A stretch of DNA of 56,728 nucleotides from Clostridia bacterium (lineage in GTDB: Bacteria; Bacillota; Clostridia; Oscillospirales; CAG-272): positions 1 to 56,728 of the forward strand of contig CAAEBS010000146.1 in NCBI GenBank assembly GCA_900754175.1, given 5' to 3'. The notes below the pieces were generated by a model. The model saw only the letters and a program-made list of their open reading frames with translations, was not told the origin of the DNA and ran no database searches. Below are positions 3,501-18,691 of the stretch, piece by piece; the first letter of the stretch is position 1; each line of letters starts with the position of its first letter. A program made the translations under genes and the position numbers.

Positions 3501-6500
3501 TGGCTGTACATAAAGGTAATGGTGATGCTGTCCACCAGCCCCTTATCCGGATTGGTAGCAAATCCGCCGCTGATAAACTGCCAGTCGGTGATACCCTTGT
3601 CAAAGTCAAAGTAAAAGGTATCCTCCGGCGGCATATCGGTTCCGTCGTAGTACTGAACCGTAGCCTGGATGCAGAACAGACTGGTCACGGCATACGCCTG
3701 CGCCGTTCCCTTGCCCCAGCCCGAAACGGTGAACATGATCGGGTCTTTGCCGTCGCCACGCCCCGTTTCGATATACTCGGTCCGCCTGGAATCGGTCGTC
3801 TGATAGACGGTCTGCTCCACGAATTCATACTCGTCCAGATCGATATCAATTTTCAGGACCTTGCCGAACGCCGGAATTCCCGAATCGACGATGGTGACGG
3901 GCTTGGAGCCATAGTCCAGGATTCTCCAGAAGCTTCCGGGCGTGACCGCATCCATACTGCTCTCAAAATGTCCGGCGTTGACCAGGTCGTATTCCGCCAC
4001 TCCGGTCGTTCTGGACAGCATGACGTTGTCCACCCAGATCACCTCGTCCGCACTGGGAGAGCCTGTCACGACCACAGAAATCTTAAACCGTTCTTTTCCG
4101 CCGGACGCCCCGGGGTCTGCGGTGAAATTCAGCCCGGCAAACGCATAATGTCCGGTGGCATAATACTTGTTTCCGGCAATCTCCTGCGTAACGGAATGGG
4201 CGCTGTTGCTCATGGATTCGGCTTTCAGATAGATATGAACGCCGTCCGGCAACTCGTGGGTGTTGATATACAACGCCAGCGAATACTCGCCCTTGTCAAG
4301 AGAGACATACTGATAAATCGACGAGGAGGTAGTGGTGGCGTTGACCGTCAGGGCAGCGCACGCACGCCCCTCATGCTGCATCAAGCTCCAGCAGGTTGCG
4401 GTGCCGGTCTTGTTCCAGTAAGGAATGGAGTCGGACGCCGTTTCCTCAAATCCGCCGTTCAGCAGATAGTTTGACGACCGCTGAGTGGTCTGAACCGAGG
4501 ACTTCAGATTGTTTCTGGCTTTGGGATTGTCGTCGCCGACGTACTGCCCGTTGGAAGCGCCGTAAATCTGCGTTTTGTCAAGATCGGTCGTGTAACAGCT
4601 TACCGTTCTTCCCTCTTTGTCAAAACCGTATGTGGTCAGCAGATCGTCGTCCGTGTTGAAAATGTCATCGGTGCCGCTTGTCCGGATGACCGTGCTGGAA
4701 GCGCCGTAGGTGAGCGACAACTGCTGTCCGGCGGTGTCGGGCGTGTCGACAGCCCATTCTTTCACGGAGGTCACACGCTTGGCGGCGTCATATCCGTATT
4801 CCACCTTGTACCGGGAAAGGCTGTTTGTAACACAGGTGATCAGACCGTCGCTGTTGTAGGTGTAATCGGCGACGGCGTCAACCGTTATTCCGCCGGACGA
4901 GCTGTTGGAATCCGTATTGTAAAAGCTGCTCCACATCGCACTCGTGGTCCCGCCGTGGGCACGCACGATCTGGCGGAGATATTTTCCGGACGATGCGGCA
5001 ATTTCTCCGGTCGGCGTTGCCGAATACCGGACCACCACGCCCTCTCCCGAGGTCGGGTTCCATATCAGGTAAGGTCTTCCGTTGCCGTCGTATTCAAATT
5101 TCAACTGTTCGATCGGATTTCTGCCGTTTGGTTTCAGCGAAATGCCGGTCGGGCGTGTGGACGTGTCGAGGTCGATGATGACCTTGTTGCCGTTCTTGTC
5201 CTGAATCTCGATCAGGTACAGTCCGACCACCACGCCCTCCGGCTCCCAGCCGAAAATATGATAGGTCCGCACATTGTTGTTCTTATCGGTTATGGTGGAG
5301 GTGAGGTCGCCCTCTTCAAGCTTCAGAAGCAGACCGTCCTCATCCTCATACACCGTGCTTTCGGAGGTGGGCATAAAGTAGTGCTCGGTCCCGTCGCTGT
5401 CCGACAGGACGTAGAAATAAGCGGTGTTGCCCTCCTGATTCGTAAAGGATTTTTTGATAAGCGTCTCGTTGAGGTTCAGTTTTATCGACATCGGCTCATA
5501 CGTTCCCCAGTACGACATCTGCGCATAAGGATAATAATACTCCTGATTTGCCATGGCAGAATCGTAGACGAAAGTCGGGGTAAAGGGCATGAGCGAATCA
5601 ATGGTCGTAAGCGTCGGGATGCTGAACACCAGCTTTCCGGTGGCATTGTTTACCGAACCGGTACCGGCAAAGCCTGCGCTCTGCGAGGTGTAGGACCAGT
5701 AGCTTTCAAGCCCTTTCATGTCCTTGTAGGTAATGCAAAGCTGAGGGCGCTTGGTCTTGTCGGACGCCTCGTTTGCATAGAACTTGGCGATTCCGGTAAA
5801 GTCAGTGCCGGTTGCCGGTCCGAACATGATTCCATAATTCTGCCCGCTGTACCACTTTTTCACAATGGGCGTGATGTTCCAGTGGTAACCCCAGTAGTCA
5901 TTCAGCCCCTCTGCCTCATAACACTGAATCTCCTGAAAATCGGTAAATTCGGTTGCCGGAACTCCCTGCGGATTTTCGGATGCCGTAACCTTGCTCCAGT
6001 TCAGCGACGCATCCCAATCGCTGGTCACGTCATATACCGCAACGTATCCGTACATATACTCGGAGGTAAAGCACGTCATGGTAAACTGCGCATCGGTAAC
6101 GTATGCCGATGCAGGCAGTGCCGGCAAGGTATTGAGCTTCCAATAAGCCCGCCATTCGCTGCTTACCCAAAGCGACGGCGTATCGGCACCTGTCCCGGAA
6201 CTGGTATTCACATCAATGTCCAGAACCGAGGAATTTGCGCCCGTGTATATCGGCGGGTCGATCGTAACGGGAAATACTCTTTCCTCCGCATTGAGCCACC
6301 CGCTGTCGGCGGTGACCGTCAGCGTATATTTGCCGTTGCCGTGATCGTTCAGGGCAAATGAAACCGCCGAAGAGCGATTTCGCCCGGCATCGTACATAAA
6401 AGGCGCCGGGATCCAATAGAAAACGTCGCCGGATGCAGGATCCGACAGGATAATTTCGCCCTTTTCATTCAACGTCGCCGCCAGGTTGTTGAGCGACATG

Positions 6501-7141
6501 GTGAAGGAATAAGAATAACTGCTCTGCCGCTCCTTTACAATAATGTTTTCTTTGACGTCCAGACCGCTGACAATATACTCAAGGTCGGTGCCGGGAAGAA
6601 TGTCCTCATACTTCACCGACGCCGCAAATTTGTCAAGCGCCGTCATCTTCTGCAAGGTGGTGGCGTCCGTACCGTATTCCCCCTCGTGGTTGGTAATCCG
6701 CCCCGGGATCTTCTTTGCGGCGCCGTCAAGCGCCAGCGTCAGCTTTTTGTTGCCGTCGTGGATCGTAAAAATATTGCCGTTTCCGGTCGTCTTTTTTGCA
6801 AATTTGATCTTTGCGTCGGAGGTCGTAATGTCACTGCCGTTTGCGGCAAGTGTGTTGTCAATGTCCTGCCATACGCCGTCCGCATCCAGATAATGGATCG
6901 CCGTATCGTATTGCGCCAGATAGCAGGACCCATCCTCCAGGCGGAAGGTCTTGGTCGTCTCGGTCCGCCTGTCGGTAAGCTCAAATATTTCTCCGGATTT
7001 TTCAATCGTATCGGGGAGCGATTGGCTGTCATTGCCAAGCCCCAAAGCCAGTGCAGAAAGAGGAAGGGACATAATTACCACAATCACTGCAAGCAAAAAG
7101 GCAACGGCTTTCAGGGTCGGCTTGAATTTACTTTTTTTCAT
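524..7141 (-). CDS. RHS/YD-repeat polymorphic toxin (WapA-like, Sec signal peptide) with C-terminal DUF4329/JAB-like domain
   Basis: 2205-aa ORF. N-terminal signal peptide MKKSKFKPTLKAVAFLLAVIVVIMSLPLSALALG. CBM-like LLNGGFE modules and many YD repeats (YxYDxxGN). RHS-core end motif YCGNNPVNFIDPNG. RBS AAAGGA upstream of 7141. Confidence 0.93.
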   Translation of the reverse strand: MKKSKFKPTLKAVAFLLAVIVVIMSLPLSALALGLGNDSQSLPDTIEKSGEIFELTDRRTETTKTFRLEDGSCYLAQYDTAIHYLDADGVWQDIDNTLAANGSDITTSDAKIKFAKKTTGNGNIFTIHDGNKKLTLALDGAAKKIPGRITNHEGEYGTDATTLQKMTALDKFAASVKYEDILPGTDLEYIVSGLDVKENIIVKERQSSYSYSFTMSLNNLAATLNEKGEIILSDPASGDVFYWIPAPFMYDAGRNRSSAVSFALNDHGNGKYTLTVTADSGWLNAEERVFPVTIDPPIYTGANSSVLDIDVNTSSGTGADTPSLWVSSEWRAYWKLNTLPALPASAYVTDAQFTMTCFTSEYMYGYVAVYDVTSDWDASLNWSKVTASENPQGVPATEFTDFQEIQCYEAEGLNDYWGYHWNITPIVKKWYSGQNYGIMFGPATGTDFTGIAKFYANEASDKTKRPQLCITYKDMKGLESYWSYTSQSAGFAGTGSVNNATGKLVFSIPTLTTIDSLMPFTPTFVYDSAMANQEYYYPYAQMSYWGTYEPMSIKLNLNETLIKKSFTNQEGNTAYFYVLSDSDGTEHYFMPTSESTVYEDEDGLLLKLEEGDLTSTITDKNNNVRTYHIFGWEPEGVVVGLYLIEIQDKNGNKVIIDLDTSTRPTGISLKPNGRNPIEQLKFEYDGNGRPYLIWNPTSGEGVVVRYSATPTGEIAASSGKYLRQIVRAHGGTTSAMWSSFYNTDSNSSSGGITVDAVADYTYNSDGLITCVTNSLSRYKVEYGYDAAKRVTSVKEWAVDTPDTAGQQLSLTYGASSTVIRTSGTDDIFNTDDDLLTTYGFDKEGRTVSCYTTDLDKTQIYGASNGQYVGDDNPKARNNLKSSVQTTQRSSNYLLNGGFEETASDSIPYWNKTGTATCWSLMQHEGRACAALTVNATTTSSSIYQYVSLDKGEYSLALYINTHELPDGVHIYLKAESMSNSAHSVTQEIAGNKYYATGHYAFAGLNFTADPGASGGKERFKISVVVTGSPSADEVIWVDNVMLSRTTGVAEYDLVNAGHFESSMDAVTPGSFWRILDYGSKPVTIVDSGIPAFGKVLKIDIDLDEYEFVEQTVYQTTDSRRTEYIETGRGDGKDPIMFTVSGWGKGTAQAYAVTSLFCIQATVQYYDGTDMPPEDTFYFDFDKGITDWQFISGGFATNPDKGLVDSITITFMYSHHPGEGYFDNVSVVRDSNTTDIYDYDAKGYLTTYKNGRNTAWYQYDDNNNVIRAVSSNKSMVTYEYDSKNRVKKEYHKKYTGYFRPSDGEVVNGTVTEKFYYSYGYNSFGQPTYVWTYDSAENSTAQSFSVTEYNTQNGTHIFGSVANEIDSLWNITRYFYDETNGRLLATAYPEGNGVCYQYDAIGNLTGVLPATLVETVTEYEDPDGIPIRDYSYSYSPNSNSASVSYEYDPVTKRLSSITTGSTEYTFVYDAFGNTTGISAGDHSLAGYEYNNNNGKLNTLTYGNGLKVKYVYDILDRISEIRYNTGENGAFETVYSYTYDSAGNIFSLTDHKANEVTLYKYDSESKLVQFYVYDSETYTNRYGSSIYYDEQSRISMVFHNVDYSCPAGSYYGTTYYDSASYSYSYNDATGNLRYLVYSGDLVYGVISPVYDSFGRVESKEIDFEVDDVEAFYNRLIYDYKTSENYESGLVSKVISSVGINSDLTTATTRYYEYDDNGNITQIADGSGVIQNKYYYDSLGQLVREDNRAQNRSYVYEYDNAGNITAKRWYAFTTGTLGTPQGVDLYSYEDSLWGDLLTYWGDDRIVYDEIGNPTMIGYYYEGDWYGGYVMTWNGRQMMSCMNVDLSTMLNFTYNADGIRTSKTVEGVEHRYTLSGSQIISESWEEGGVEYLLIYIYDENGSPIGLKYRTDSYAAERYNYFFFEKNLQGDIIAIYNESGNQIGTYTYTAWGEVSSKFNKGRTVLEFNILFTMNPFRYRGYYYDVETGWYYLQSRYYNPEWGRFLNADGQLNCGLLGYNQFSYCGNNPVNFIDPNGTCPYNGTSADFHRLEYGLPPMDCTCRYYGMSDDEATRRASGRYTSYDRCLDNAIKMIEERYLTDPNCYEHAVFIYKDAQGYYCISVIYHTTSTSSVNVCPWKVRDKGATIVAFIHTHPHDKNQYVFNDKEIGEMNPSWRYYVVAIDTDHTSLYCYTPHAHGTVEDTLKIWEKGRR
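527..1051 (-). other. C-terminal 175-aa variable tip of the RHS protein (DUF4329/JAB-fold-like, putative toxin or effector module)
   Basis: Begins right after ...NPVNFIDPNG. Contains EHAVFIYKDAQGYY...VAFIHTHPHDKNQYVFND, the E...HxH...D pattern I associate with DUF4329/JAMM folds. Visibly more AT-rich than the repeat body. Confidence 0.55.
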
Positions 7142-7313
7142 GGTCGGAAATCCTTTCTTTTCTTCATCCGCATCGTCAAATTCCGGCTTTGATTGATGAC
7201 GTTTTCAATCTTCCCTGCAAGGTACTGTCCGCATGTCCTCGGTGCACACAAGGGCATGCAAACGGCAAAGCCTCTTCCTTTATGTAAGATCGTCCTGATC
7301 GGGACGATTACAT

Positions 7314-7368
7314 ACAAAGACAAAAAGCGCATAAAGCCGCCAGGTTTTTCCCGACTGCTTTATGCGCT
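7314..7368 (-). terminator. Terminator-like hairpin inside the RHS 5' leader (attenuator, or end of a short upstream transcript)
   Basis: Perfect 12-bp inverted repeat agcgcataaagc (7326..7337) / gctttatgcgct (7357..7368) with a 19-nt loop. On the minus strand it is followed by TTTTGTCTTTGT. Confidence 0.4.
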
Positions 7369-7511
7369 GAATTGAATATTAAAGTGCTGTCATGGTATTC
7401 AGAACGGATACACAAACCGTCCTGCGAAGTTCGGCAGCAAAAGGGTCAGCGCTTTTCGCTCCACGCTCTGCACTGTCGGGCGGTATAAAGATCGCTGTTG
7501 ACTTTATCCAT

Positions 7512-7540
7512 ATTATACCATGTTTGCACTGTTTTGTCAA
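7512..7540 (-). promoter_or_regulatory. Consensus sigma-A-type promoter upstream of the RHS gene
   Basis: Minus strand: TTGACA (7540..7535), 17 nt, TATAAT (7517..7512), preceded by TGg (extended -10). Implies a leader of about 360 nt before ATG 7141. Confidence 0.55.
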
Positions 7541-7648
7541 TATCTGGAAATGTCACAAAATGTAAAAAAATATTTTGGCTATTTCCCACAAGCCACAATC
7601 TGTTTCGTATCAAATCCGGCTTTTATTTGCTCCAAATGATATTATTGC

Positions 7649-7689
7649 AAAAACCCCGCCCGCTTTCCGGATTTGGAAAGCGGGCGGGG
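7649..7689 (-). terminator. Rho-independent terminator downstream of the Na/Pi cotransporter gene
   Basis: 15-bp GC-rich stem ccccgcccgctttcc (7654..7668) / ggaaagcgggcgggg (7675..7689). On the minus strand it is followed by TTTTT (7653..7649). It sits 7 nt after the stop at 7696. Confidence 0.75.
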
Positions 7690-7695
7690 GGAATT

Positions 7696-9462
7696 TTAAC
7701 TATTGGCAGGTCTTTTTCTTACGGAATACTTCTGCGCATACCGGCGGTATTTTTCGATGAAGTTGGGGTCCTCCTGCTTGATTCTTTTCAGTGCTTCATG
7801 GGCGTTCATGTTATTTTCGCTCGCATCTATGATACAGACTGCAATGTTGGAGCAATGGTCGCTGACCCGCTCAAAGTTTGTGAGAAGATCCGACCATATA
7901 AAGCCGGCTTCAACCGTACACTCCCCACCTTTCAGACGGACGATATGACTGTCTCTGAGGGTGGCTCTGAGGTCGTCCACCACCTGCTCCAGCGGCTCCA
8001 CGTCATAGGCAAGCGCCACGTTTTCCTCCACGAAAGCCCGCTCGGTCAGCGTCAGCGTTTCCTCCACTGCCCGGCAAAGGACGTTCAGCTCGGCTTTTGC
8101 AGAGCCGGAAAATTCAATTCCCTTTTCCCGCAGTTCCTCCGCCGACTCTATGACGTTTACAGCGTGGTCGGATATCCGCTCCAGATCCCCGATCGCTTTC
8201 AGCAGTTTGGAGACGGTTGCGCTGTCCCGGTCCGAAATCTGATATTGGCTCAGGCGGGCAAGATAGGTTCCGAGGACGTCTTCATAATGGTCGGTCTTTT
8301 CCTCGATATCCCGCACCTTTTGTGCAATCTCGGGCGTAAAACGGTCGATTGCCTGAATACTCAGCCGAAAGCTCCCGATCGCCTCTGTTGCCATTTTGGA
8401 AGTGAGACGGCTGCACTGGTCCAGCGCAATGCTCGGCGTAGCCAGGAGTCTTTCGTCCAGTTCCACCGGCTTTTCGGCGCTCTTTCCGTCGGGAACCACC
8501 TTATACGCCAGCTTTTCCAGCAGGGACGAGGAAGGCAGCAGCAGTACCGTACAAAGGACATTGAATGCCGAATGGCAGACCGCAATGCCAAGGTAGGACG
8601 CCGGTTGCGAAAGAATTGCGGGCTTCAGGACGGCAGACAGGATGCTGAACGCCGAAAGCCAGATGACTGTGCCGATCACATTAAAGGACAGGTGAACGAA
8701 CGCCGCACGCTTAGCGTTTTTATTAGTGCCGAAAGACGACAGCATGGCGGTCACGCAGGTACCGATATTCTGTCCCATGATGATCGGGATCGCCGCACTG
8801 TAAGAGATTGCCCCCGTCGCCGACAGCGCCTGAAGAATACCGACGGAAGCGGAACTTGACTGGATCACGCCGGTAACGACAGCGCCCACCAGGACGCCGA
8901 GAAGCGGATTCTTGAACGCCACAAACAGGTTCTGAAATTCCGGGACGTCCGCCAGCCCTGAGACGGCGCCGGACATGGCGTCCATACCGAACATCAGCGT
9001 GGCAAAGCCGAGGAGGATCGTGCCGATGTCCTTCTTTTTTGAGGACTTGGCAAACATCGTAAAGCCAATGCCGACAAGGGCAAGCACCGGGCTGAACGAG
9101 GAGGGCTTCAAAAGCTTCAGCACGAGGTTGTCGCTTGAAATACCGCCGAGGCTGAGAATCCACGCCGTCACGGTCGTTCCAATATTGGCGCCCATGATAA
9201 CGCCGATGGACTGCCGCAGGGTCATGACCTTGGAGTTGACAAAGCCAACGACCATGACGGTTGTGGCAGAGGAGCTCTGGATGACCGCCGTCACCCCCAT
9301 CCCTGTCAGAAAGCCCTTGATCTTACTGTTGGTCAGCTTGCCGAGAAGCGATTTCAGCCCGCTCCCCGCACACCGTTCCAGACCGTCGCCCATCACGTTC
9401 ATTCCGAACAGAAACAAGCACAAGCCGCCTATAAAGGCAAGCACGTTAAAAATATCAAACAT
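7696..9462 (-). CDS. Na/Pi cotransporter family protein with C-terminal PhoU-like domain
   Basis: 588 aa. N-terminus MFDIFNVLAFIGGLCLFLFGMNVMGDGLE with duplicated IQSSSAT/IQSSSAS motifs typical of NptA/YjbB-type transporters. The soluble helical C-terminal half is PhoU-like. Confidence 0.88.
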   Translation of the reverse strand: MFDIFNVLAFIGGLCLFLFGMNVMGDGLERCAGSGLKSLLGKLTNSKIKGFLTGMGVTAVIQSSSATTVMVVGFVNSKVMTLRQSIGVIMGANIGTTVTAWILSLGGISSDNLVLKLLKPSSFSPVLALVGIGFTMFAKSSKKKDIGTILLGFATLMFGMDAMSGAVSGLADVPEFQNLFVAFKNPLLGVLVGAVVTGVIQSSSASVGILQALSATGAISYSAAIPIIMGQNIGTCVTAMLSSFGTNKNAKRAAFVHLSFNVIGTVIWLSAFSILSAVLKPAILSQPASYLGIAVCHSAFNVLCTVLLLPSSSLLEKLAYKVVPDGKSAEKPVELDERLLATPSIALDQCSRLTSKMATEAIGSFRLSIQAIDRFTPEIAQKVRDIEEKTDHYEDVLGTYLARLSQYQISDRDSATVSKLLKAIGDLERISDHAVNVIESAEELREKGIEFSGSAKAELNVLCRAVEETLTLTERAFVEENVALAYDVEPLEQVVDDLRATLRDSHIVRLKGGECTVEAGFIWSDLLTNFERVSDHCSNIAVCIIDASENNMNAHEALKRIKQEDPNFIEKYRRYAQKYSVRKRPANS

Positions 9463-9526
9463 ATCGCATTCCCTTTTCCGTATTTTTCCGCCGTTCCAAA
9501 TCTTCCGTTCTTATAGTATCCCACCT

Positions 9527-9745
9527 TTATTCCCGTTTTACGACGTCGGACGGTATTTTCATTTCCCGCCCGACCAGCTCGTCAAGGGTGACCTGCAATA
9601 TATCCGCAATGTGACAGAGCGTCCGGATATCCGGCTGGCGCTCTCCCCGCTCGTAGCGGGAATAAACGACCTTGGAGCAACCGATGCGATCTGCCATTTC
9701 TCTCTGCGTTAGAGACCGTGAAAGGCGAAGCTCCCGCAATTTCAT
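9527..9745 (-). CDS. XRE-family helix-turn-helix transcriptional regulator
   Basis: 72 aa, LRELRLSRSLTQREMADRIGCSKVVYSRYERGERQPDIRTLCHIADILQVTLDELVG. Its ATG overlaps the stop of the upstream RNase III-like gene (ATGA at 9742..9745). Confidence 0.85.
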   Translation of the reverse strand: MKLRELRLSRSLTQREMADRIGCSKVVYSRYERGERQPDIRTLCHIADILQVTLDELVGREMKIPSDVVKRE

Positions 9746-10737
9746 TCCTTCCCCTCCCAGCCGAGAATTTCACAAAGCATTTCATACGCAACTTTTTTCT
9801 TTCCCTGCTTTTTGGAAGCATCACGCCGGGTGCAGACGTGCTCCGCACCGGTCACACGGCACCCGCATATCCAGAACGGATTTCCGTTTTCGTCGTGCTC
9901 CTCGGAAAAATCATATTCCGGCTCGCCGATGCACCCTTTCTGCCAAAGCTCCTGCAACTGGTTGATCGCCCGGTCCGGGTCGGGTGCGCCCACCTCGTCG
10001 TATGCCGTAACCAGCATACCGTTCTGCCCCAGAAATTCATAGGCGCTTTTGGCGGCAGACATTCTGGCTCTGCTCTTGGAACCGCCCTCTCCCGCAAAGC
10101 TTTTCTGCATACAGGGGAGCGTCAGCACGCAATGACAAAAGCTTCCCTTGCTTTGCCCGAATCCGTATTCCGGCAGTTTCTCGCTCTTTTTCTGGCACCA
10201 CTGCTGAATCAGAGCCACGTAGTTCTGATCGTTTTCAAATCCGTTGTCCAGATAATACCCCGGGTCCAGCAGACAGTCCACCACGCTCTCAAGCTGTAAA
10301 AAATCCCAGCCGGAATCCACCGCAACCGCCCCGAGAATCGCCTCAAACAGATCCTCTTTTACCGGCGCTTCGTTTTCCACGTGATTCTGCCGGTCGCCCT
10401 TGCCCATGATCAGATATTCCTGTAAGCCGAATATCTCCACTCTTCCGGACAGCATTTTCCGCTCCACCAGCTTCTGCTTCAGCGCCGTCAGCCTGCCCTC
10501 CGCCTGCTTCGACGAGTACTCACCCACCCCGTTCAGCCGCCCGTAAAAAGCGTCCAGCGTCTTTACCGCAATAACGTCCAGGACCTTGTCCCCGATGAAT
10601 TCCAGAACCTCGTTGTTGCCGCACTCCGGATTCTCCTGCGAATACGATCGCCGGGTAAATGCCTGCTGCAACAGCTTTTTGTTCTGAAAAGTATAGCCGA
10701 TCTGGGTCTCGATGTGACGGATAATTTCTGCGTTCAT
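9742..10737 (-). CDS. RNase III family protein with two C-terminal dsRNA-binding domains
   Basis: RNase III signature NEVLEFIGDKVL and EDLFEAILGAVAVDSG. Two dsRBD-like segments end in GGSKSRARMSAAKSAYEFL and ASKKQGKKKVAYEMLCEIL. I prefer ATG 10737 (MNAEIIRHIE...) over the ORF-track start 10887 because AAGGAGG lies 10 nt upstream. Confidence 0.8.
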   Translation of the reverse strand: MNAEIIRHIETQIGYTFQNKKLLQQAFTRRSYSQENPECGNNEVLEFIGDKVLDVIAVKTLDAFYGRLNGVGEYSSKQAEGRLTALKQKLVERKMLSGRVEIFGLQEYLIMGKGDRQNHVENEAPVKEDLFEAILGAVAVDSGWDFLQLESVVDCLLDPGYYLDNGFENDQNYVALIQQWCQKKSEKLPEYGFGQSKGSFCHCVLTLPCMQKSFAGEGGSKSRARMSAAKSAYEFLGQNGMLVTAYDEVGAPDPDRAINQLQELWQKGCIGEPEYDFSEEHDENGNPFWICGCRVTGAEHVCTRRDASKKQGKKKVAYEMLCEILGWEGKE

Positions 10738-10747
10738 ATAAAAACAG

Positions 10748-10772
10748 CCTCCTTGTTTTTCGTACAAGAAGG
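10748..10772 (-). promoter_or_regulatory. Hairpin sequestering the RBS of the RNase III-like gene
   Basis: mRNA sense CCUUCUUGU-acgaaaa-ACAAGGAGG: 9 bp including one G-U. The whole AAGGAGG RBS lies in the 3' arm. Confidence 0.35.
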
Positions 10773-10950
10773 CATAGATATAGCCCGACAAAGCCCACTT
10801 CACCCGTGCGCTCCCATCGGGCACCAGAAAATAAACGGAGTTACATAAATCACTTTCATTTGATAAGACCCACTTGCATAGATCCAATCAAATATTTTTG
10901 TTTTATGTCAAGCCATTTAGATCCTCGTTCCCGACCTTCCTGACACTATC

Positions 10951-11014: not shown

Positions 11015-11068
11015 GGGAAATATGGTGTACTCCGTATCTGAAATTTCAATCGCAGACGCCCTGAAGGC

Positions 11069-12898
11069 TCACACCTTTTTCGACGTCTTTTCGTACTCCC
11101 GTATCCGTGCCGTAAAAATTCCGCCGTAAAGATCTCTTTTTGCCTGCCCGACGCCGTTGACCTCAGTGAATTCCGCAAGAGTCGTGGGGCGCTTGACGCA
11201 CATATCCCTTAAAGTGGCGTCGGAAAAGACGATGTACGCCGGCACGTCCTGCTCCCTGGCAAGCTGAAGACGGAGCCGTTTCAGCGCTTCAAACAGCGAA
11301 TAGTCAAAATCCCCCACAACCTCCCGGGGCTTTTTCTCTTCTGCGGCAGGCTTTGGTTTGATCGCTTTCATCAACAGCCGAATATCGCCGTGCAACACCT
11401 CCTGCGCCTGCGGCGTTACGTTCAGGACCGGATATTCATCCCCCCTGGTGCAAAGATACCCCTTTTCCTCCAGATAATCCATCCTGTCCCGGATCTCCCT
11501 CTCGGACATGGATTTTAAGATTCCGTACGTTGACAGGTTCTGCAAGCCAAACGACTGCAAGCGTGCGTTCTGACTTCCACGCAGGATATCGCAGATCATC
11601 TTTTTTCCGAAGTGCTGTCCGCTCCGGATTACGCAGGAAAGGATTTTCTGTGCGTCCTCCGTAATATCCACCGTTTCCGCATTAGACAGACAGTTGGAAC
11701 AGTTTCCGCATACCGATGCGCTTTTCTCGCCGAAGTACCGCAAAATGGAGTGCCGCAGGCAGTCGCCGGTTGTGCAGTAAAAAGTCATCTGCTTCAGACG
11801 TTCCATATCCCGCTCCCGCAGAATCTGCCGTTCTTCCTCCGGCAGATCGGAGACTTCGTCGGCTTTTGCAATCAGAAAACGGTCGGTTACCACGTCCTGC
11901 GGGCTGTAAAGCAAAATACAATCCGCCTTTTCTCCGTCCCGTCCGGCACGCCCGGCTTCCTGATAATAGCTTTCAATATCTTTCGGCATATTGTAGTGAA
12001 TGACAAACGCCACGTCTGATTTGTCGATCCCCATGCCGAACGCATTGGTCGCCACGATGATATCCACCCTGCCGTAAATAAAATCTTCCTGATTCTTTCT
12101 GCGCTCGTCGTCCGGAAGCCCCGCATGATACTGCGTGGCGGATATCCCGTTCCGGCAAAGAAGATCGCAGACCTCCTCCACCTTTTTCCTGGTAGAGGCA
12201 TAAACGATGCCCGAACTGCCGGAATGTTCCCGGATCCACGACAACAGCCTTTCCGGCTTTGACGTCGGCTTTTCCACACCGAAGAAAAGATTGGGACGGT
12301 CAAATCCGGTTGTGATGCAAAACGGTTCCCGCAATGCCAGAAGCGTTTCAATGTCCGCCCTGACCTTGTCCGTGGCGGTTGCGGTAAATGCGCCCACCGT
12401 AGGTCTTTCCGGCAATCCGGAAATGAACTCGGCTATTTTCAGATAGGACGGTCTGAAATTCTGTCCCCACTGCGACACGCAGTGCGCCTCGTCCACGATC
12501 ACCAGAGAAACCGGAACCTGACGGCAGACGTTCAGGAAGTCCGACGACGACAGCCGCTCCGGCGCCACGTACACCAGCTGATACCTGTGATCCCGGATGT
12601 TCTGAATCACCTTGGCGTACTGCCCCGCCGCCAACGTGCTGTTGACGTATGCCGCACCGACGCCGGATTGCGTAAGCCCCTCCACCTGATCCTTCATCAG
12701 CGATATCAGAGGGGAGATCACGATCGTGATGCCCTCTTTCATCAGCGCCGGCACCTGATAGCACAGCGATTTTCCCGCTCCGGTCGGCATCACGCACAAA
12801 ACGTCCTGCCCGGACAGAATGGTGTCAATGACTGTCTCCTGCCCCTCCCGGAACGTACTGTGCCCGAAATATCTTTTCAATACTTCCCGCTTGGTCAA
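11069..12898 (-). CDS. recQ: ATP-dependent DNA helicase RecQ (with HRDC domain)
   Basis: 609 aa. VLKRYFGHSTFREGQETVI, MPTGAGKSLCYQVPAL, VIVDEAHCVSQWGQNFRPSY, QEAGRAGRDG, Zn-binding CGNCSNC, and a C-terminal HRDC-like region. TTG start at 12898 with GGAGG 7 nt upstream, 2 nt after the upstream stop. Confidence 0.93.
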   Translation of the reverse strand: MTKREVLKRYFGHSTFREGQETVIDTILSGQDVLCVMPTGAGKSLCYQVPALMKEGITIVISPLISLMKDQVEGLTQSGVGAAYVNSTLAAGQYAKVIQNIRDHRYQLVYVAPERLSSSDFLNVCRQVPVSLVIVDEAHCVSQWGQNFRPSYLKIAEFISGLPERPTVGAFTATATDKVRADIETLLALREPFCITTGFDRPNLFFGVEKPTSKPERLLSWIREHSGSSGIVYASTRKKVEEVCDLLCRNGISATQYHAGLPDDERRKNQEDFIYGRVDIIVATNAFGMGIDKSDVAFVIHYNMPKDIESYYQEAGRAGRDGEKADCILLYSPQDVVTDRFLIAKADEVSDLPEEERQILRERDMERLKQMTFYCTTGDCLRHSILRYFGEKSASVCGNCSNCLSNAETVDITEDAQKILSCVIRSGQHFGKKMICDILRGSQNARLQSFGLQNLSTYGILKSMSEREIRDRMDYLEEKGYLCTRGDEYPVLNVTPQAQEVLHGDIRLLMKAIKPKPAAEEKKPREVVGDFDYSLFEALKRLRLQLAREQDVPAYIVFSDATLRDMCVKRPTTLAEFTEVNGVGQAKRDLYGGIFTARIREYEKTSKKV

Positions 12899-12900
12899 TT

Positions 12901-15900
12901 TTAAACCTCCGTATCCGTCACGTCAGCCTTCCGACGATCGATGACAAAACTCTTTTTCTCTTTCCTTTCAAAATGCAGATCCGGCAGGAGCACCGCCGTC
13001 TCCCTGGTATCCTCTTCCTTTTTCCAAGCAACGACAAACCGGACGTTGGCACTGACCGGACAGTATCCTTTCTTTTCAAGCTCCTCCAATCGTGCCATAC
13101 ACGCCTTTGACAGTTTGGCTACTTTTACAGGGTACCCTCCAAGCGTAGCAAACAAAAATCCCTGTCCGAAAGAAAGAGCCGCTCCGCTATGCAACTTTAA
13201 GATCTGTTCCTTTTTTCCCTTGAAAAAGTCCAGTACAACGTCTCTGTGGGTCAACTGAAGCGACAGCTCCTGTGGCTCCGGGTATTGCGTTGTATCGACG
13301 AACCGCCCGATTCCGGCTCCTTCATATGCATCGAAAATCCCGGTGTTGCAGTGAACATACAAATTGTCCTTTGCCCTCGTCATACCGACATAAAGCTTTC
13401 GCCGCCCGGCATCGTCACAAAGCTGTTCCCGGTTCAGAAGCAACCACACGCTGTCAAACTCTCTGCCCTTGGATTTATGTATCGTGGAAACGAATACGGT
13501 TTCCCGGTCATCGGTGTAAAAGTCCTCAAACTGAGACTCTTTTATGAACTCCTCAAGATCGCTCCGGTATTTGCTGTAAGAATTGACTTTTTCAAAATCC
13601 GAAATCATGTTTCGGACGTTCTCAAGGCAGGCACTGTCGGAATACGTCTCTTCCAAAGCCTGCTTTGCCTGATTCCACAGGTCGTTGCTGATAACCGGTG
13701 TTCTGAGCCTTTTATCAATCGTATGCAAAAAGAAGCGAACCTCTGCCAGATTATACAGCCGGAATCCGTCGAGCGACTGGATCAGTTTTGCACGAATACC
13801 GTTTTTGAGAAGCAAGCCGAGCACACATAGCGCATCTTCATTGGTACCGGTCAGGACACACGCCCTTCCGCCACGATAGTTTTCCATGATCTGCCGCACG
13901 ATCGGTTCTTCCATGTTATTGCAGGTGTGTCGTACGATCTGCACAATTCCGTTTTCTCTCTGCACCGCCTCAATCGGATTCTGCTTCATGCGATTTCCAA
14001 TCCCCTCGGCGAAACGGTTGGCAAGCGCTACAATATTTGCCTTACTGCGATAATTTTCCACCAATTCATACCGGGTGGCACCGTAATCATGGATCAATTG
14101 TCGCATAAATGCGGAATCAGAACCACGGAATTCATAAATATTCTGGTCATCGTCTCCCACAGCAATCACACGCATATCGTCATTGTTACGTATCAGCGCC
14201 TGAATCAGAGAAAATTCATCTGCGTCCATATCCTGTGCCTCGTCAATTACAAGAACGCTTTTGGTAATCCTCCCCTGCTCCACCTCGCCGTTTGCAATCA
14301 TCTGCGCCGCATCGTGCACCACGTTTTCCACGCCGTCCAGACTGCCGATCTTACCCAGCAGATCAAAACAATAAGAATGAAAGGTCTTGATCTCCACAAA
14401 ATTTGCCGCATTTCCGATCAAAGCCATCAGACGCTTTTTGAATTCGGTTGCCGCCGCCCGTGAAAAAGTCACCATAAGAAGCTGTTCGTGTTTGACATCT
14501 TCCAGAAGGAGCAAAGACGCCAGTTTATGAACAAGCACTCTTGTCTTTCCGCTTCCGGGACCAGCCGCAACCACGATATACCGGGAATCCGCATCGTTTA
14601 TAATCTGCGACTGCATATCCGAAAGCTCACCGAATAACTGATGATATTTTTCCGGTGTAATGTTCCGGTTGATATCCTTTGCCCTCTCCCCTTTGAAATA
14701 CTTAGCGATAAAACGTTTGAAATCCATTCCGAAATAATCCCGGACAAACTGAAGAGCGGCGTCATAATCCCGGACCATCAGGTTTGCATATTCGCCGACG
14801 ATATGGATCTGCTGGATCTTCTGCTTATAATACTCGCTGAGCGTCCGGTAATCCTCCGCTTTATATCGGATCTTGTTATCAAGAATTAACCGTTTTACCT
14901 CCATGCCGTTGTAAAGAACCAGGAAACCGCCCTCAAGCTTCATCGAGCCGATTTTGGAAAGATACAGGAGAGCGTCCTCCACGTCTGTAAGCATCGTTCC
15001 GGAAACGTCAAAATCAGCCCCCATGTTGGGTTCATTGATGTATTTCTGCCAAAGCCCGACCAGAGAAAACTGTACCGGCGCACTTTCCTGCCCACCCTCG
15101 ACAGTCTGTGCCATTTCATAGAGTTCTTTTACCAGGAACCGACAAACATCAACTCTGCGCCGGAATTTTTCAAGCAGTCTCGGAATTTCCATTGTAGGCA
15201 CCGCCAAGGTATGCGGCGTCGGCTCGGACGTATCGTCATCCGGGTTCCTCTCCTTACTTCCTTTGGAAATGTACCCTTTGATCGTCAGATAGTACAGAAG
15301 CGTGCGGAGATTTTTAACCGAGGAAGCCGTGATTCCGGCGTTTTGCGCCGCCTCATTGAGCTCTTTCAGAGACAGGTCTGACCCCTGCTCCGATATATGG
15401 CTCAGCAGAAATTCTTCCAGCTTTATAAAGCGGTTCAGAATCTGCGCCGACCGGTTTTCGGTATCAGATCTCATAATATAAGCCGACATATCCATTGAGT
15501 CAGCAAGCAAACCATCCTGCCGCATCAGATTGACAGACGTCACAACGTCTGCTTTCGGGATTCCCAGAATATCCGCAAGATAGTCCACCCGGGACTCCGC
15601 ATCATCATTCCCCGCCTCCGCAATACTCCGACTGGAGATCAGGGACTTGATGATCCGCTTTGCGTTTTCCTTTTGCTTGTCGTCGAAAAGCGGCGACTTT
15701 TCGATTCTGAACGAAGCCTCCGCCATGTTTTTTGCAAGGATACTGGTAGCATAGACGTGCGGAACATTTTTCCCACGTTTTACATATCCGGCATTTTCAA
15801 GCGCCGCAACTGCTGTCTTGACACGGGTCTCGATCTCCTTTATCGAATCGTCCCATCCCGCCTGCCTGGCGATCTCCAAAGCAGAACAGCATACCCACGG

Positions 15901-17790
15901 CTTTTCCCTCGTCAACTCCTTCAGCGCCTTCCAGACCTGTTGGATCTCGCTGATACTGAGTTTGGTCTGATTCAGAAGCATAAAGTGCTTATCCAGGTCA
16001 TTGTCGTTGAACAACACGTAGCATTCCGCCTGCAAACTGGGATCCCGACCGGCTCTGCCCGCCTCCTGCACGTAATTTTCCAGGGAGTCGGAAATGTCGT
16101 AGTGAACAACCAGGCGGACGTCCTTTTTGTCCACTCCCATACCAAACGCAGAGGTAGCCACAATGATTTTTACCCGGTTCTGAATAAAAGCTTCCTGATT
16201 TGCAATTTTTTCGTTCGGATCCATCTTTCCGTTGAAAGGCTTTGCGGGGAAACCGTCGCTTGTCAGCTTTTCCGCAATCTGGATCGTTCTTTTCGTGAGG
16301 GAAACGTACACGATAGTCGGGCAGTTCTTTTGCTCGATAAGCGCACGGAGCGCATTGTATTTTTCGTCATCGGTTTCTTTGTACAAAACCGTATAATGGA
16401 GGTTTTCACGATCCGCCGTGGAAGTAAACAGCTCCAGTGCAACACCAAGCTTTACCCGGAAATAATCGCAGATATCGGTAATGACCTTCTGTTTTGCCGT
16501 AGCGGTAAAGCAGGACACCGGAACCGGCGTTTTCATTTGTTTTTTCTTCTGGTACTCTTTTATAAAATCGCCAATATACAGGTAATCCACACGGAAATCC
16601 TGCCCCCATGCGGAAAAGCAGTGCGCTTCATCGATGACAAAACGCACCACGTTGCGGGAAAGAAGCAGTTTCTCAATGGTCCGGGAACGCAATTGTTCCG
16701 GAGAAATGTACAAAAGAGTTGCCAGACCGCTCTCCACCCGTTCCAGCGCTTCCGACCGCTCGATCGGGCTGAGCAGACCGTTGACCGTAACGGCGTCCAC
16801 CAGTCCTTTTTCATTCAGATTGTCAACCTGATCCTTCATCAGGGACTGAAGCGGCGAGATGACGACTGTCAGCCCATGAGCGCACTCCCCTGCCATAAGA
16901 GCCGGCAACTGAAAGGTAATGGATTTTCCGCCTCCCGTCGGAAAGACCGCCAACAAGGATTTTCCGTCAACTGCTGCCTGCGCCGCACGCTCCTGCAACG
17001 GTTCTCCGTTATAGGTACGGAAATTGTCGTACCCGAAAAACTGTTTCAGCTTTTTATGAATATCAAGTCTGTCTCTGCAATAGGCACAACCGTCTTTGCA
17101 GGGGGTATGACAAAGATATCGGACGATATTATCAATTCTCGGAAAGTTTTTAGTCAGCCACGGCGGCGTTACGGAATGGTAATCCGAAGCGCTGATCAGA
17201 GCGAGCGCATACGCAAGCTCCACAGGATAATGCCGCACCATCAGCTCCACATCCGAATTTTTGCAGATCCTCCCTTTATATTCCTTGCGGATCCATCCGG
17301 CAACGTCAGAGCGTTCCGGCGTAACGCCAACGTAATCAAAAAAGCCTTTGAATTCCTCACGATCGTACAACAGGCAACTATATATCTGTTTTCTTCTGTA
17401 AGAAAGCTCGTGAAAAGTATTGACCTCATCTGCAAACAACTGCATTGCCTTTTCGGCGTCGTTCAAAGGATTGTTAAGCTGATCGGACAAAATCTTGTCG
17501 TCCTTCAAAAGGCGATGATACGGTCGGCACGGAAACAAAAGCGGAGACAGATAAAGCGTGTCAACCGGCTTGGCACGCAACGGCTTATCAAAATGCGGCG
17601 TCAGATACAAAAGGTCATGATGAACGATATTGTGCCCACAGATAAAGTCCGCATCCGAGACAAAATCATAAAATTTTGGCACAGAAAGCGCATGAAAAGA
17701 AGACCGGTCCTCCTTTATCGCCCCAAGATCCTTTATTTTTTTGTCCTCCACACCGATTTCACTATCAATGAACACGATAGACTTTGCCAT
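12901..17790 (-). CDS. Fusion protein: DEDD 3'-5' exonuclease + RecQ-type SF2 helicase + UvrD-type SF1 helicase
   Basis: ORF track gives 12901..17850. I prefer ATG 17790 (MAKSIVFIDSEIG) with AAAGGAG 7 nt upstream. Exonuclease motifs: FIDSEIG, GHNIVHHD. RecQ motifs: FPTGGGKS, VIDEAHCFSAWGQDFR, QEAGRAGRD. UvrD motifs: AAGPGSGKT, VIDEAQDM, VGDDDQNIYEFRG, ENYRS, TIHKSKGREF, VGMTRAKDNLY. Confidence 0.9.
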   Translation of the reverse strand: MAKSIVFIDSEIGVEDKKIKDLGAIKEDRSSFHALSVPKFYDFVSDADFICGHNIVHHDLLYLTPHFDKPLRAKPVDTLYLSPLLFPCRPYHRLLKDDKILSDQLNNPLNDAEKAMQLFADEVNTFHELSYRRKQIYSCLLYDREEFKGFFDYVGVTPERSDVAGWIRKEYKGRICKNSDVELMVRHYPVELAYALALISASDYHSVTPPWLTKNFPRIDNIVRYLCHTPCKDGCAYCRDRLDIHKKLKQFFGYDNFRTYNGEPLQERAAQAAVDGKSLLAVFPTGGGKSITFQLPALMAGECAHGLTVVISPLQSLMKDQVDNLNEKGLVDAVTVNGLLSPIERSEALERVESGLATLLYISPEQLRSRTIEKLLLSRNVVRFVIDEAHCFSAWGQDFRVDYLYIGDFIKEYQKKKQMKTPVPVSCFTATAKQKVITDICDYFRVKLGVALELFTSTADRENLHYTVLYKETDDEKYNALRALIEQKNCPTIVYVSLTKRTIQIAEKLTSDGFPAKPFNGKMDPNEKIANQEAFIQNRVKIIVATSAFGMGVDKKDVRLVVHYDISDSLENYVQEAGRAGRDPSLQAECYVLFNDNDLDKHFMLLNQTKLSISEIQQVWKALKELTREKPWVCCSALEIARQAGWDDSIKEIETRVKTAVAALENAGYVKRGKNVPHVYATSILAKNMAEASFRIEKSPLFDDKQKENAKRIIKSLISSRSIAEAGNDDAESRVDYLADILGIPKADVVTSVNLMRQDGLLADSMDMSAYIMRSDTENRSAQILNRFIKLEEFLLSHISEQGSDLSLKELNEAAQNAGITASSVKNLRTLLYYLTIKGYISKGSKERNPDDDTSEPTPHTLAVPTMEIPRLLEKFRRRVDVCRFLVKELYEMAQTVEGGQESAPVQFSLVGLWQKYINEPNMGADFDVSGTMLTDVEDALLYLSKIGSMKLEGGFLVLYNGMEVKRLILDNKIRYKAEDYRTLSEYYKQKIQQIHIVGEYANLMVRDYDAALQFVRDYFGMDFKRFIAKYFKGERAKDINRNITPEKYHQLFGELSDMQSQIINDADSRYIVVAAGPGSGKTRVLVHKLASLLLLEDVKHEQLLMVTFSRAAATEFKKRLMALIGNAANFVEIKTFHSYCFDLLGKIGSLDGVENVVHDAAQMIANGEVEQGRITKSVLVIDEAQDMDADEFSLIQALIRNNDDMRVIAVGDDDQNIYEFRGSDSAFMRQLIHDYGATRYELVENYRSKANIVALANRFAEGIGNRMKQNPIEAVQRENGIVQIVRHTCNNMEEPIVRQIMENYRGGRACVLTGTNEDALCVLGLLLKNGIRAKLIQSLDGFRLYNLAEVRFFLHTIDKRLRTPVISNDLWNQAKQALEETYSDSACLENVRNMISDFEKVNSYSKYRSDLEEFIKESQFEDFYTDDRETVFVSTIHKSKGREFDSVWLLLNREQLCDDAGRRKLYVGMTRAKDNLYVHCNTGIFDAYEGAGIGRFVDTTQYPEPQELSLQLTHRDVVLDFFKGKKEQILKLHSGAALSFGQGFLFATLGGYPVKVAKLSKACMARLEELEKKGYCPVSANVRFVVAWKKEEDTRETAVLLPDLHFERKEKKSFVIDRRKADVTDTEV

Positions 17791-17824: not shown

Positions 17825-18625
17825 TTAAAATTCAACTCTGTTAATTTCATCTGATATTTCAGTTAAGCTTTCATAACTTCCCTTTTCGTTTAAAAAAGCC
17901 TGAACTGTTTTTTTGCCCTGAAGATTAACACTCTCGGTATACATATTGTGTTTTCGGGTATAAAGCCTGCAATTATTAAAATTTACTTCCGCATTGATCA
18001 ACGGCAAAACAACCGCAAAGTGCCTTTTCAGCAAATCCATTTGCCCTTCCGTTATTCTGGGAAAATAAGTAGACACTACATTCCAGATCCCATGACTTAC
18101 AAGTAAAAAATAATCAGTATAATTCGTCACAATAAAAACATTATTCGCTCCTGTTTTGACCGCTAAGTTCAAGGAGTACAAACTATTCCTTCTATTAAAG
18201 ACCTCGGATTTCGGATATCTATGTAATCGATTTTCACGGCATGAATAAAAGTCAAAGCACTGTACATTCCCCGAAAGATCGACGGTGGGGATGATAATAC
18301 TATTGCGCATCTTATCGCAATAAGTTCCCGAGTTGGACTTAAAAACCAAGTGATACTTTTCGGCTTCTTCCTGTTGTTGAGAGGTAGAAAAAACTTTCCT
18401 CGTCAAATAAGGGTCACCATCATGAAAACCTAAACCAAGCTTTGTTATTTCCCGAAAGGAAAGATTATACTTATTCTTTAAAAATGAAAAAGCTGCCTGC
18501 GACTTCGGATTCATCTTCCATTGGGAATAATACAATTTTGCCGCCGTGCGCATCATATTCTCTCGTGATTTTAAAATTGTACTCTTTTTTTCCTCCAATG
18601 TATAGGTATCCCCTTCACCACTCAT
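17825..18625 (-). CDS. DnaG-core-like protein lacking Zn finger and catalytic TOPRIM residues (pseudo-primase)
   Basis: 266 aa. By eye it aligns to the DnaG RNAP/TOPRIM core. LGLGFHD matches IGFAP. MRNSIIIPTVDLSGNVQCF matches FRxRxMFPIxDxxGxVIGFGGR. RYPKSEVFNRRNSLYSL matches KYLNSPETxxFxKGxxLYGL. VFIVTNYTDYFLL matches VVEGYMDVVAL. The TOPRIM Glu is Thr and DGDxAG is replaced by INAEVN. RBS AAGGTGGA. Confidence 0.6.
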   Translation of the reverse strand: MSGEGDTYTLEEKKSTILKSRENMMRTAAKLYYSQWKMNPKSQAAFSFLKNKYNLSFREITKLGLGFHDGDPYLTRKVFSTSQQQEEAEKYHLVFKSNSGTYCDKMRNSIIIPTVDLSGNVQCFDFYSCRENRLHRYPKSEVFNRRNSLYSLNLAVKTGANNVFIVTNYTDYFLLVSHGIWNVVSTYFPRITEGQMDLLKRHFAVVLPLINAEVNFNNCRLYTRKHNMYTESVNLQGKKTVQAFLNEKGSYESLTEISDEINRVEF

Positions 18626-18662
18626 ATGCCGTTTTCCACCTTATGTAAAATCTTATACTTAC

Positions 18663-18691
18663 AGTATATCATAAAATCTGACTATTTTCAA
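18663..18691 (-). promoter_or_regulatory. Promoter of the pseudo-primase/helicase operon
   Basis: Minus strand: TTGAAA (18691..18686), 17 nt, TATACT (18668..18663), preceded by TGa (extended -10). About 30 nt upstream of the RBS. Confidence 0.5.

Follow-up and report, generated by a model that had tools for sequence, protein, structure and literature searches.

The DNA analysed here, referred to as the window, is a stretch of 56,728 nucleotides from a Clostridia bacterium (GenBank assembly GCA_900754175.1, contig CAAEBS010000146.1) and carries a gene for a protein, P0001, that is homologous to the RNA-polymerase core of the bacterial primase DnaG and lacks the acidic metal ligands of its active site, a loss for which we call it and its relatives dead. 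The open reading frame of P0001 is uninterrupted, is preceded by a ribosome-binding site and a predicted promoter and is followed on the same strand by genes for a giant RecQ-UvrD fusion helicase and a canonical RecQ (Table 1). The stop codon of P0001 and the start of the giant helicase are separated by 34 nt, recQ begins 2 nt past the giant helicase stop, and the three genes would be co-transcribed as one operon. The true start of the giant helicase is probably M21 at position 17790, as suggested by a ribosome-binding site (AAAGGAG), by homologues and by the gene call in L020, a metagenome contig of a 99.6% identical strain that carries the same three genes.

Table 1. Features of the window and of loci carrying other members of the dead-primase family.
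Feature	Position or loci	Strand	Basis
P0001 coding sequence, dead DnaG-core protein, 266 aa	window 17825..18625	(-)	open reading frame, Pfam, hidden Markov model, alignment, AlphaFold2/Foldseek
Predicted sigma-70-like operon promoter: TTGAAA, 17 nt, TATACT, TG before -10	window 18663..18691	(-)	consensus scan only
Ribosome-binding site AAGGTGG, 10 nt 5' of the P0001 ATG	window 18636..18642	(-)	sequence reading
Giant RecQ-UvrD fusion, 1629 aa, gene after P0001	window 12901..17790	(-)	Pfam, PADLOC, NCBIfam
Canonical RecQ: DEAD, Helicase_C, RecQ_Zn_bind, RQC, HRDC	window 11069..12898	(-)	TIGR01389, 750.9 bits, over cut-off
Dead-primase genes of the ~650-aa architecture	L024 8726-10729; L025 8789-10735; L052 7001-8986		
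Superfamily 1 helicase adjoining (16)	L003, L021, L022, L024, L025, L028, L031-L035, L040, L048, L049, L051, L052		
No helicase adjoining (3)	L023, L027, L037		
Cut by contig ends (7)	L026, L029, L030, L036, L038, L039, L050		

P0001 is a true homologue of the DnaG RNA-polymerase core, as the initial annotation had proposed. Pfam DNAG_N (PF08275) matches at 34.4 bits against a cut-off of 26, and the TIGR01391 dnaG model aligns its positions 110-300 of 414 with residues 19-204 (E 3.5e-18) at a score of 65.7 bits, which is below the curated cut-off of 283.6. All seven PDB matches returned by phmmer are DnaG cores (best E 4.8e-8), and the profile of the dead-DnaG family described below finds Aquifex DnaG at E 2.3e-35. 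Structure comparison, which the initial annotation had named as a check of this relationship, agrees. An AlphaFold2 (AF2) model of P0001 was built on 17 family sequences (mean predicted local distance difference test, pLDDT, 77.9; predicted template modelling score 0.77). Its best 20 Foldseek matches in the PDB are all DnaG RNA-polymerase domains, with E values down to 5e-13 and template modelling (TM) scores of 0.58-0.69 over about 250 columns, and T7 gp4 and Twinkle come after the DnaGs. A search of a viral structure library returned DnaG-type primases too, and an earlier model from five sequences was poor (pLDDT 63.7) yet gave the same match ranking. P0001 consists of an N-terminal primase RNA-polymerase subdomain, a TOPRIM fold without acidic metal ligands and one C-terminal helix. 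The lack of a zinc finger and a helicase-binding domain, also part of the initial annotation, is borne out: a Pfam scan of P0001 detected no Zn_ribbon_DnaG or CHC2 (PF01807), Toprim or DnaB-binding family; the protein starts at about position 110 of the DnaG model, past the CHC2 zinc-binding domain; and in the AF2 model little follows the TOPRIM fold beyond the one long helix. Among PADLOC models, antitoxin models included, P0001 matches none at E values up to 1.

The active-site acids of the primase core are replaced in P0001 and in its relatives. We aligned 20 family members (including P0001) by MAFFT with nine true DnaGs, one of them from the same genome. The motif readings VTNY, INAEVN and RYPKS made in the initial annotation hold in both the HMMER and the MAFFT alignments. 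The TOPRIM Glu of VEGY (EGYMD in true DnaGs) is Thr167 in VTNY, the DxDxAG motif is INAEVN with N211 and E213 in place of the two Asp residues, and the KDPDE block is KKTVQ (K239-T240-V241-Q242), the DPD acids being replaced by T240 and Q242. The GGR motif is F124-D125-F126, and the basic-ridge KYLNS is RYPKS (residues 136-140), which is KYPNT in most family relatives. Five of the six TOPRIM acidic positions are thus substituted in P0001. The sole survivor is D171, the second acid of EGxxD, kept in P0001 and in 13 of the 20 aligned members. The TOPRIM Glu and the DPD acids are absent from all 20 members and kept by eight true DnaGs of the same alignment; the DxD is missing as well except in one divergent member, P0026, which may keep a DxD-like DID. 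A shifted register that would rescue the active site was considered and ruled out: since E213, the only acid near the DxD position, is unconserved in the family and the HMMER pairwise alignment, the MAFFT alignment and the fold matches share one register, no alternative alignment regains the catalytic residues. Other DnaG motifs are still recognisable, FRxR as MRNS, LYGL as LYSL and NAVA as NVVS. P0001 also retains the first Arg of FRxR (R107), R136-Y137, R145, N182 and D104, positions that lie on the template-binding ridge of E. coli DnaG in its complex with single-stranded DNA (3B39). Having lost its metal ligands together with the zinc-binding and DnaB-binding domains, P0001, as judged from its sequence, cannot make primers by the DnaG mechanism, and it is predicted to be a pseudo-enzyme derived from DnaG primase.

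P0001 belongs to a free-standing family of dead DnaG cores that apparently has not been described before. A profile search of 1.84 billion representative proteins yielded about 22 representatives at E <=1e-30 set apart from the continuum of true DnaGs, with P0001 at E 1.2e-119, and a profile search of clusters gave a family size of 57 clusters at 90% identity. In the source annotations, members go under the names 'DNA primase' or 'CHC2 zinc finger domain-containing protein', and when the full-text literature was searched for inactive DnaGs or pseudo-primases of bacteria, only papers on Twinkle came up. Three architectures are found: the core alone (247-266 aa), as in P0001; a DnaG-type zinc ribbon followed by the core (~350 aa); and proteins of ~650 aa with an N-terminal region, a sigma-70 region-3/4-like helix-turn-helix, a zinc ribbon and the core. 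In the ~650-aa members P0010, P0011, P0012 and P0014, a region of ~180 aa without family assignment precedes the sigma-like helix-turn-helix (RpoH E 1e-9), a module of the kind that binds DNA or RNA polymerase, and one member, P0301, carries an extra N-terminal HRDC domain. Loss of the TOPRIM acids goes together with signature motifs of the family's own (MRNSIIIPT, CFD, NLYSLNLA, YxDYF and NVVSTY) and with a nearly invariant D125. Of the 36 positions with >=85% conservation in other members, 29 are the same in P0001, which is without two of the 3-5 Cys residues conserved in most members. Close relatives in the family are under purifying selection: the ratio of non-synonymous to synonymous substitution rates (dN/dS) is 0.07-0.16 in 15 pairs with unsaturated dS, drawn from seven zinc-ribbon-plus-core relatives, most of them close.

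In a maximum-likelihood tree, true DnaGs form one clade (support 100/99) and the dead-DnaG family lies outside it. A weak split puts P0026, P0017 and P0024 on the same side as the DnaGs, so that the tree does not resolve the family as monophyletic, and P0001 sits on a long branch joined weakly to P0016. The member closest to the true DnaG clade is P0026 (340 aa); with the DID mentioned above but no TOPRIM Glu, it may mark an intermediate stage in losing catalysis.

The dead-primase family is accessory and moves horizontally. A genuine dnaG is present elsewhere in the same assembly, on contig 67 (positions 7064-8293; 592 aa, 428.5 bits, above the TIGR01391 cut-off), and encodes a CHC2 finger and the motifs CEGYMD, YDADNAG and KDPDE, which settles a check suggested in the initial annotation. 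No orthologue of P0001 was found in 24 genomes of the same genus and 16 of the same order, where all matches are the ~600-aa housekeeping DnaG. The guanine-plus-cytosine (GC) content of the operon falls stepwise from recQ (54.4%; 68% at third codon positions, GC3) through the giant helicase gene (48.7%, GC3 57%) to the dead primase gene (36.6%, GC3 38%), against 52.2% for the whole window. The initial annotation had described the gene, from rough counts, as the most AT-rich of its operon, which the computed values confirm, and had suggested separate acquisition, which fits the low GC typical of the family in all hosts. Whatever the host, family genes stay within 30-37% GC, including where the host itself has 45-53%, from which we conclude that the family moves horizontally; the GC of the window copy is unameliorated. 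Searches of phage, plasmid and viral-contig collections revealed no family member, and nothing convincing was seen when the surroundings of the P0001 gene were inspected for direct or inverted repeats marking an insertion.

Members of the family repeatedly adjoin superfamily 1 (SF1) helicase genes. We read 26 other loci with a family member, taken from genome and metagenome contigs and homologue look-ups; L020 was excluded as the same element as the window. Because a single conserved peptide pattern (DKMRNSII-like) served to find the loci, the main clade may be over-represented among them. An SF1 helicase gene directly adjoins the family member on the same strand in 16 of the 19 informative loci, and the window gene is arranged likewise. 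Three partner architectures occur. The commonest is a UvrD-type helicase of ~1100 aa that also carries a zinc ribbon of the topoisomerase type and an RQC domain; a second kind is a Upf1-like helicase of ~1000 aa (AAA_11/AAA_12) to which a nuclease-like DUF2726 domain is joined (L025 and L051); and a third, the giant RecQ-UvrD fusion, is found in the window and in L040, a divergent metagenome contig. An SF1 motor is common to all three otherwise unrelated architectures, and at the domain level GajB models hit the UvrD portions of the partner helicases. Short-form members adjoin helicases as well (L035, L048 and L049). In the main clade, the dead primase gene lies downstream of the helicase gene, whereas in the window it lies upstream. 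In L021, the UvrD-RQC helicase (6347-9679) contains an insertion at about residues 308-412 with weak PHROGs matches to Holliday-junction resolvases and endonucleases (E 7.6e-6 and 2.6e-4), and this partner may be a helicase-nuclease.

A second case of pairing with the giant fusion is L040, where the dead primase is 42-48% identical and the giant helicase 56% identical to those of the window, the two dead primases belonging to different subclades. Since L040 is divergent and its dead primase falls into another subclade, the pairing is either old or has arisen twice. The dead-primase gene of L040 (617-1292) is split over two frames near 981-1006 in a contig of ~1.7x coverage, probably as a result of sequencing error rather than pseudogenisation.

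Many of the modules are carried by putative mobile elements. In L003, L021 and L031-L034, the order on a small mobile element is HTH_17, UvrD-RQC helicase and zinc-ribbon dead primase. The common layout places the module, with HTH_17 upstream, between tnpV and a Mob_Pre relaxase gene, followed by a large serine recombinase with DUF4368; in L032 and L033 both relaxase and recombinase are found downstream of the module. This layout is that of a predicted Tn4451-like mobilisable transposon, and the position between tnpV and the relaxase is presumably the cargo position of Tn4451. TnpV adjoins the dead-primase gene in nine loci; Tn4451-like carriage is frequent in the family, not universal. Other members lie among defence-type genes: a type IV methyl-directed restriction enzyme and a Mokosh-like helicase in L025, a TIR protein in L048, an nSTAND-like NTPase in L051, and HEPN-SNF2, GHKL ATPase, MazE and integrase genes in L052. 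A small DUF6809 gene, sometimes together with tnpV, is located directly 3' of the dead primase gene in L048 (5202-5480), L049 (4259-4537) and L050 (3060-3326). The family member of L037 (2250-3035) lies 1 kb from two RHS-repeat toxin-type genes (4101-10853), and the window encodes a 2205-aa RHS protein (524-7141) 10 kb from P0001; this may be coincidence or indicate a shared type of island.

The giant helicase of the window combines a RecQ-type SF2 motor (~264-720) and a UvrD-type SF1 motor (~1075-1505; numbering of the 1649-aa open reading frame) with winged-helix-like linkers. Its N-terminal 240 aa and a 350-aa linker match no Pfam family. As a domain of the 1629-aa fusion, the RecQ part matches the PADLOC model PsyrT at E 1.4e-79. 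Compared with L020, the dead primase gene shows three differences in 801 nt, all non-synonymous, the giant helicase gene six in 4890 nt and recQ 17 in 1830 nt, 14 of them synonymous. These small numbers hint that the dead primase and the giant helicase share a more recent history with each other than with recQ, and suggest a recombination boundary at the helicase/recQ junction. L020 also contains an extra segment of ~925 bp (7602-8526) with a NERD-domain (nuclease-related) gene between recQ and an RNase III-like gene, which is absent from the corresponding window positions 11033-11053.

Viewed alone, the giant RecQ-UvrD family is large, comprising at least 8000 clusters at E <=1e-50 and more than 120 clusters at least 67% identical, and is found in Clostridia and Bacteroidia under the source name 'RecQ family ATP-dependent DNA helicase'. 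Among the 40 related genomes, the giant helicase occurs in one only (G009, same genus, 69% identical), where it is preceded by a 157-aa gene resembling nucleoside deoxyribosyltransferases or TIR proteins (L015 4921-5394, minus strand). A constant association of the giant helicase with a dead primase was considered and rejected. Four relatives that we read stand alone or beside unrelated genes, one of them (L043) adjoining an Abi_2-like gene and PDC-S53, a candidate defence gene in PADLOC. Because neither these relatives nor G009 have a dead primase adjoining, the giant helicase does not need one; only a few lineages have the dead primase as an add-on. The different gene found in G009 suggests a variable 'partner slot' upstream of the giant helicase.

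Taken together, we favour a reading in which P0001 is a non-catalytic, single-stranded-DNA-binding subunit of helicase or helicase-nuclease conflict modules, to which we assign a probability of roughly 0.55. P0001 would bind single-stranded or primed DNA via its retained ridge and, with no catalysis of its own, would assist the SF1 motor of the giant helicase in substrate recognition, loading or control of activity. In gut Clostridia, the family represents a 'helicase + dead primase' module that is accessory and moves horizontally. Because the module is found as cargo on Tn4451-like elements and among defence-type genes, it would most likely serve genetic conflict, in which invading DNAs are fended off or compete with one another, and not replication of the chromosome. 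The DNA- or partner-binding role put forward in the initial annotation is strengthened, not proven, by purifying selection on the family and by SF1 helicase adjacency at 16 of 19 loci. Further points for the favoured reading are the SF1 motor common to three partner architectures, the giant-fusion pairing seen again in L040 and the HRDC domain of one member. A bolder version, which we hold only tentatively and consider doubtful, is that the dead DnaG core, with its zinc ribbon where present, has been repurposed as a 'reader' of single-stranded or freshly primed invader DNA that licenses destruction by an SF1 helicase-nuclease.

Several observations weigh against the favoured reading. The coupling between P0001 and its helicase is deduced from gene adjacency, and three informative loci have no helicase adjoining. 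Many of the 16 helicase-linked loci are relatives of one element, with helicases 92-94% identical, reducing the independent cases to about nine. The giant helicase relatives without a dead primase, four loci and G009, belong on this side as well. A nuclease function of the giant helicase would depend on motifs: the initial annotation had placed a DEDD exonuclease in the N-terminal 240 aa, a region that gave no Pfam match at E 0.1 and no PDB match at E 1. No TnpV was found in the window by tblastn, a search that did not extend to Mob_Pre and recombinase genes. The window copy is moreover divergent, combining a long branch with strain differences that are exclusively non-synonymous and with the loss of a family-wide Cys, the FC-motif residue present in all 19 other aligned members and replaced by T223 in P0001.

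The mobile setting of the module would also fit a role in replication or maintenance of the element itself, in which the HTH_17-helicase-primase-like trio replicates the excised Tn4451-like circle. The dead primase would then bind an origin or single-strand origin, or load the helicase, and the window copy would be a captured leftover beside another helicase. The model for such an arrangement is alpA-pri-rep, the replication module of phage-inducible islands. TnpV beside the gene in nine loci, the relaxase and recombinase genes of L032 and L033 and HTH_17 directly upstream of the helicase are consistent with this explanation, as is retention by many members of the zinc ribbon, which in real primases reads template sequence. 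We nevertheless consider it unlikely. Primase chemistry ought to be retained in a replication module, yet all aligned members lack it, and the position between tnpV and the relaxase gene is the one we take for cargo. The module also occurs off such elements among the defence-type genes of L025, L048, L051 and L052, no TnpV was found in the window, and the searches of phage, plasmid and viral collections yielded no family member. P0001 could alternatively be an antitoxin-like inhibitor, a small upstream gene product silencing a harmful helicase-nuclease until a trigger arrives, as in PsyrTA (RqlHI), with the slot before the giant helicase filled by different proteins in different strains. The relatives of the giant helicase that stand without a small partner argue that the helicase is not inherently toxic, and dead primases of the main clade lie downstream rather than upstream of their helicases. 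This explanation is distinctly unlikely even though the RecQ part matches PsyrT and a deoxyribosyltransferase- or TIR-like gene precedes the 69% identical helicase of G009, given also that P0001 matches none of the antitoxin models.

The divergence of the window copy raises the question of whether P0001 is a decaying relic, a hitch-hiking and functionless fragment of a primase-like gene from a mobile element. Its architecture is the shortest in the family, its branch is long, the family-wide Cys is lost, its GC is unameliorated, and all three differences from the sister strain are non-synonymous. Three differences are too few to show relaxed selection, however, and the reading frame is intact, has a promoter and a ribosome-binding site, is tightly spaced to the helicase gene and retains most of the family's conserved positions. 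Other short forms adjoin helicases too and the giant-helicase pairing recurs in L040, so that decay appears improbable. Even less can be said for a remodelled enzyme that carries out primer synthesis, another nucleotidyl transfer or cleavage with different residues. To our knowledge, no TOPRIM enzyme works without the Glu and the DxD (Aravind et al., 1998, cited in PMC5512222). D104, the nearly invariant D125 and D171 do remain near the former active site, and the 3-5 conserved Cys residues of most members could hold a metal. P0001 lacks two of these Cys residues, though, and across the family the TOPRIM Glu and the DxD and DPD Asp residues are replaced by unconserved residues, which renders continued catalysis very improbable.

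If the coupling of dead primase and helicase is real, it would offer a handle on the substrates of the large, widespread and uncharacterised RecQ-UvrD fusions, show one more enzyme fold put to new use in genetic conflict, as a sensor or adaptor for nucleic acids, and provide a compact two-gene module suited to anti-phage or anti-plasmid testing. Should the dead primase indeed act as a reader of invader DNA, 'helicase + pseudo-primase' would represent a new modular class of immunity against mobile elements with a sensor that can be plugged onto at least three helicase chassis, including a ~1600-aa RecQ-UvrD fusion. Family members annotated as 'DNA primase' call for caution, as they are predicted to be unable to prime by the DnaG mechanism.

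Compared with the bacterial DnaG RNA-polymerase domain (TIGR01391; PDB 1DD9, 3B39, 4E2K, 5GUJ and 2AU3), P0001 has the same fold and subdomain order and keeps part of the basic ridge, whereas its C-terminal helical bundle is reduced to one helix, the zinc-binding and DnaB-binding domains are missing, and its gene is an accessory one alongside a normal dnaG. Among defence systems, Gabija similarly pairs a TOPRIM-fold protein with a UvrD-type helicase in a two-gene unit among defence-type genes. GajA, however, joins an ABC ATPase domain to a catalytic TOPRIM of the OLD type; both are missing from P0001, which belongs to the DnaG type and has no PADLOC match. As for PsyrTA (RqlHI), a RecQ-like toxin with its antitoxin, the PsyrT match of the giant helicase is to one domain of the 1629-aa fusion, and no antitoxin model matched P0001. 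A recent report (10.64898/2026.02.16.706125) mentions class 3 UG/Abi reverse transcriptases that are accompanied by DnaG-like and helicase proteins. These systems (PADLOC RTasDnaG-like and RTasHel) likewise combine a DnaG-like protein and a UvrD-like helicase in a defence-type setting. RTasHel is the best PADLOC match of the UvrD-RQC partner (E 2e-49), and a long family member touches RTasDnaG-like via its zinc ribbon (E 5.6e-8), a match that P0001 does not share. Unlike those systems, the window operon has no reverse transcriptase domain in its three proteins.

The closest parallel would be the dead primase domain that serves the helicase of animal Twinkle. The primase-like N-terminal domain of metazoan mitochondrial Twinkle has a 'pseudo-primase active site' (PMC9723800; PDB 7T8B and 8E2L). 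Like P0001, it has a DnaG/T7-gp4-type primase fold that has lost catalysis, in some forms also the zinc domain, and is kept with a helicase. In Twinkle, this domain is of the T7 gp4 lineage and is fused to an SF4 (DnaB-like) ring helicase, while P0001 is a separate protein of the bacterial DnaG lineage encoded beside monomer-type SF1/SF2 helicases, and the fold similarity between the two is weak (TM 0.39-0.41). The window adds the shortest, core-only architecture, upstream of a different and much larger helicase. Dead primase domains were thus known from animal Twinkle, fused to the helicase they accompany; what appears to be new here is a free-standing bacterial family, kept by selection and found repeatedly beside SF1 helicases.

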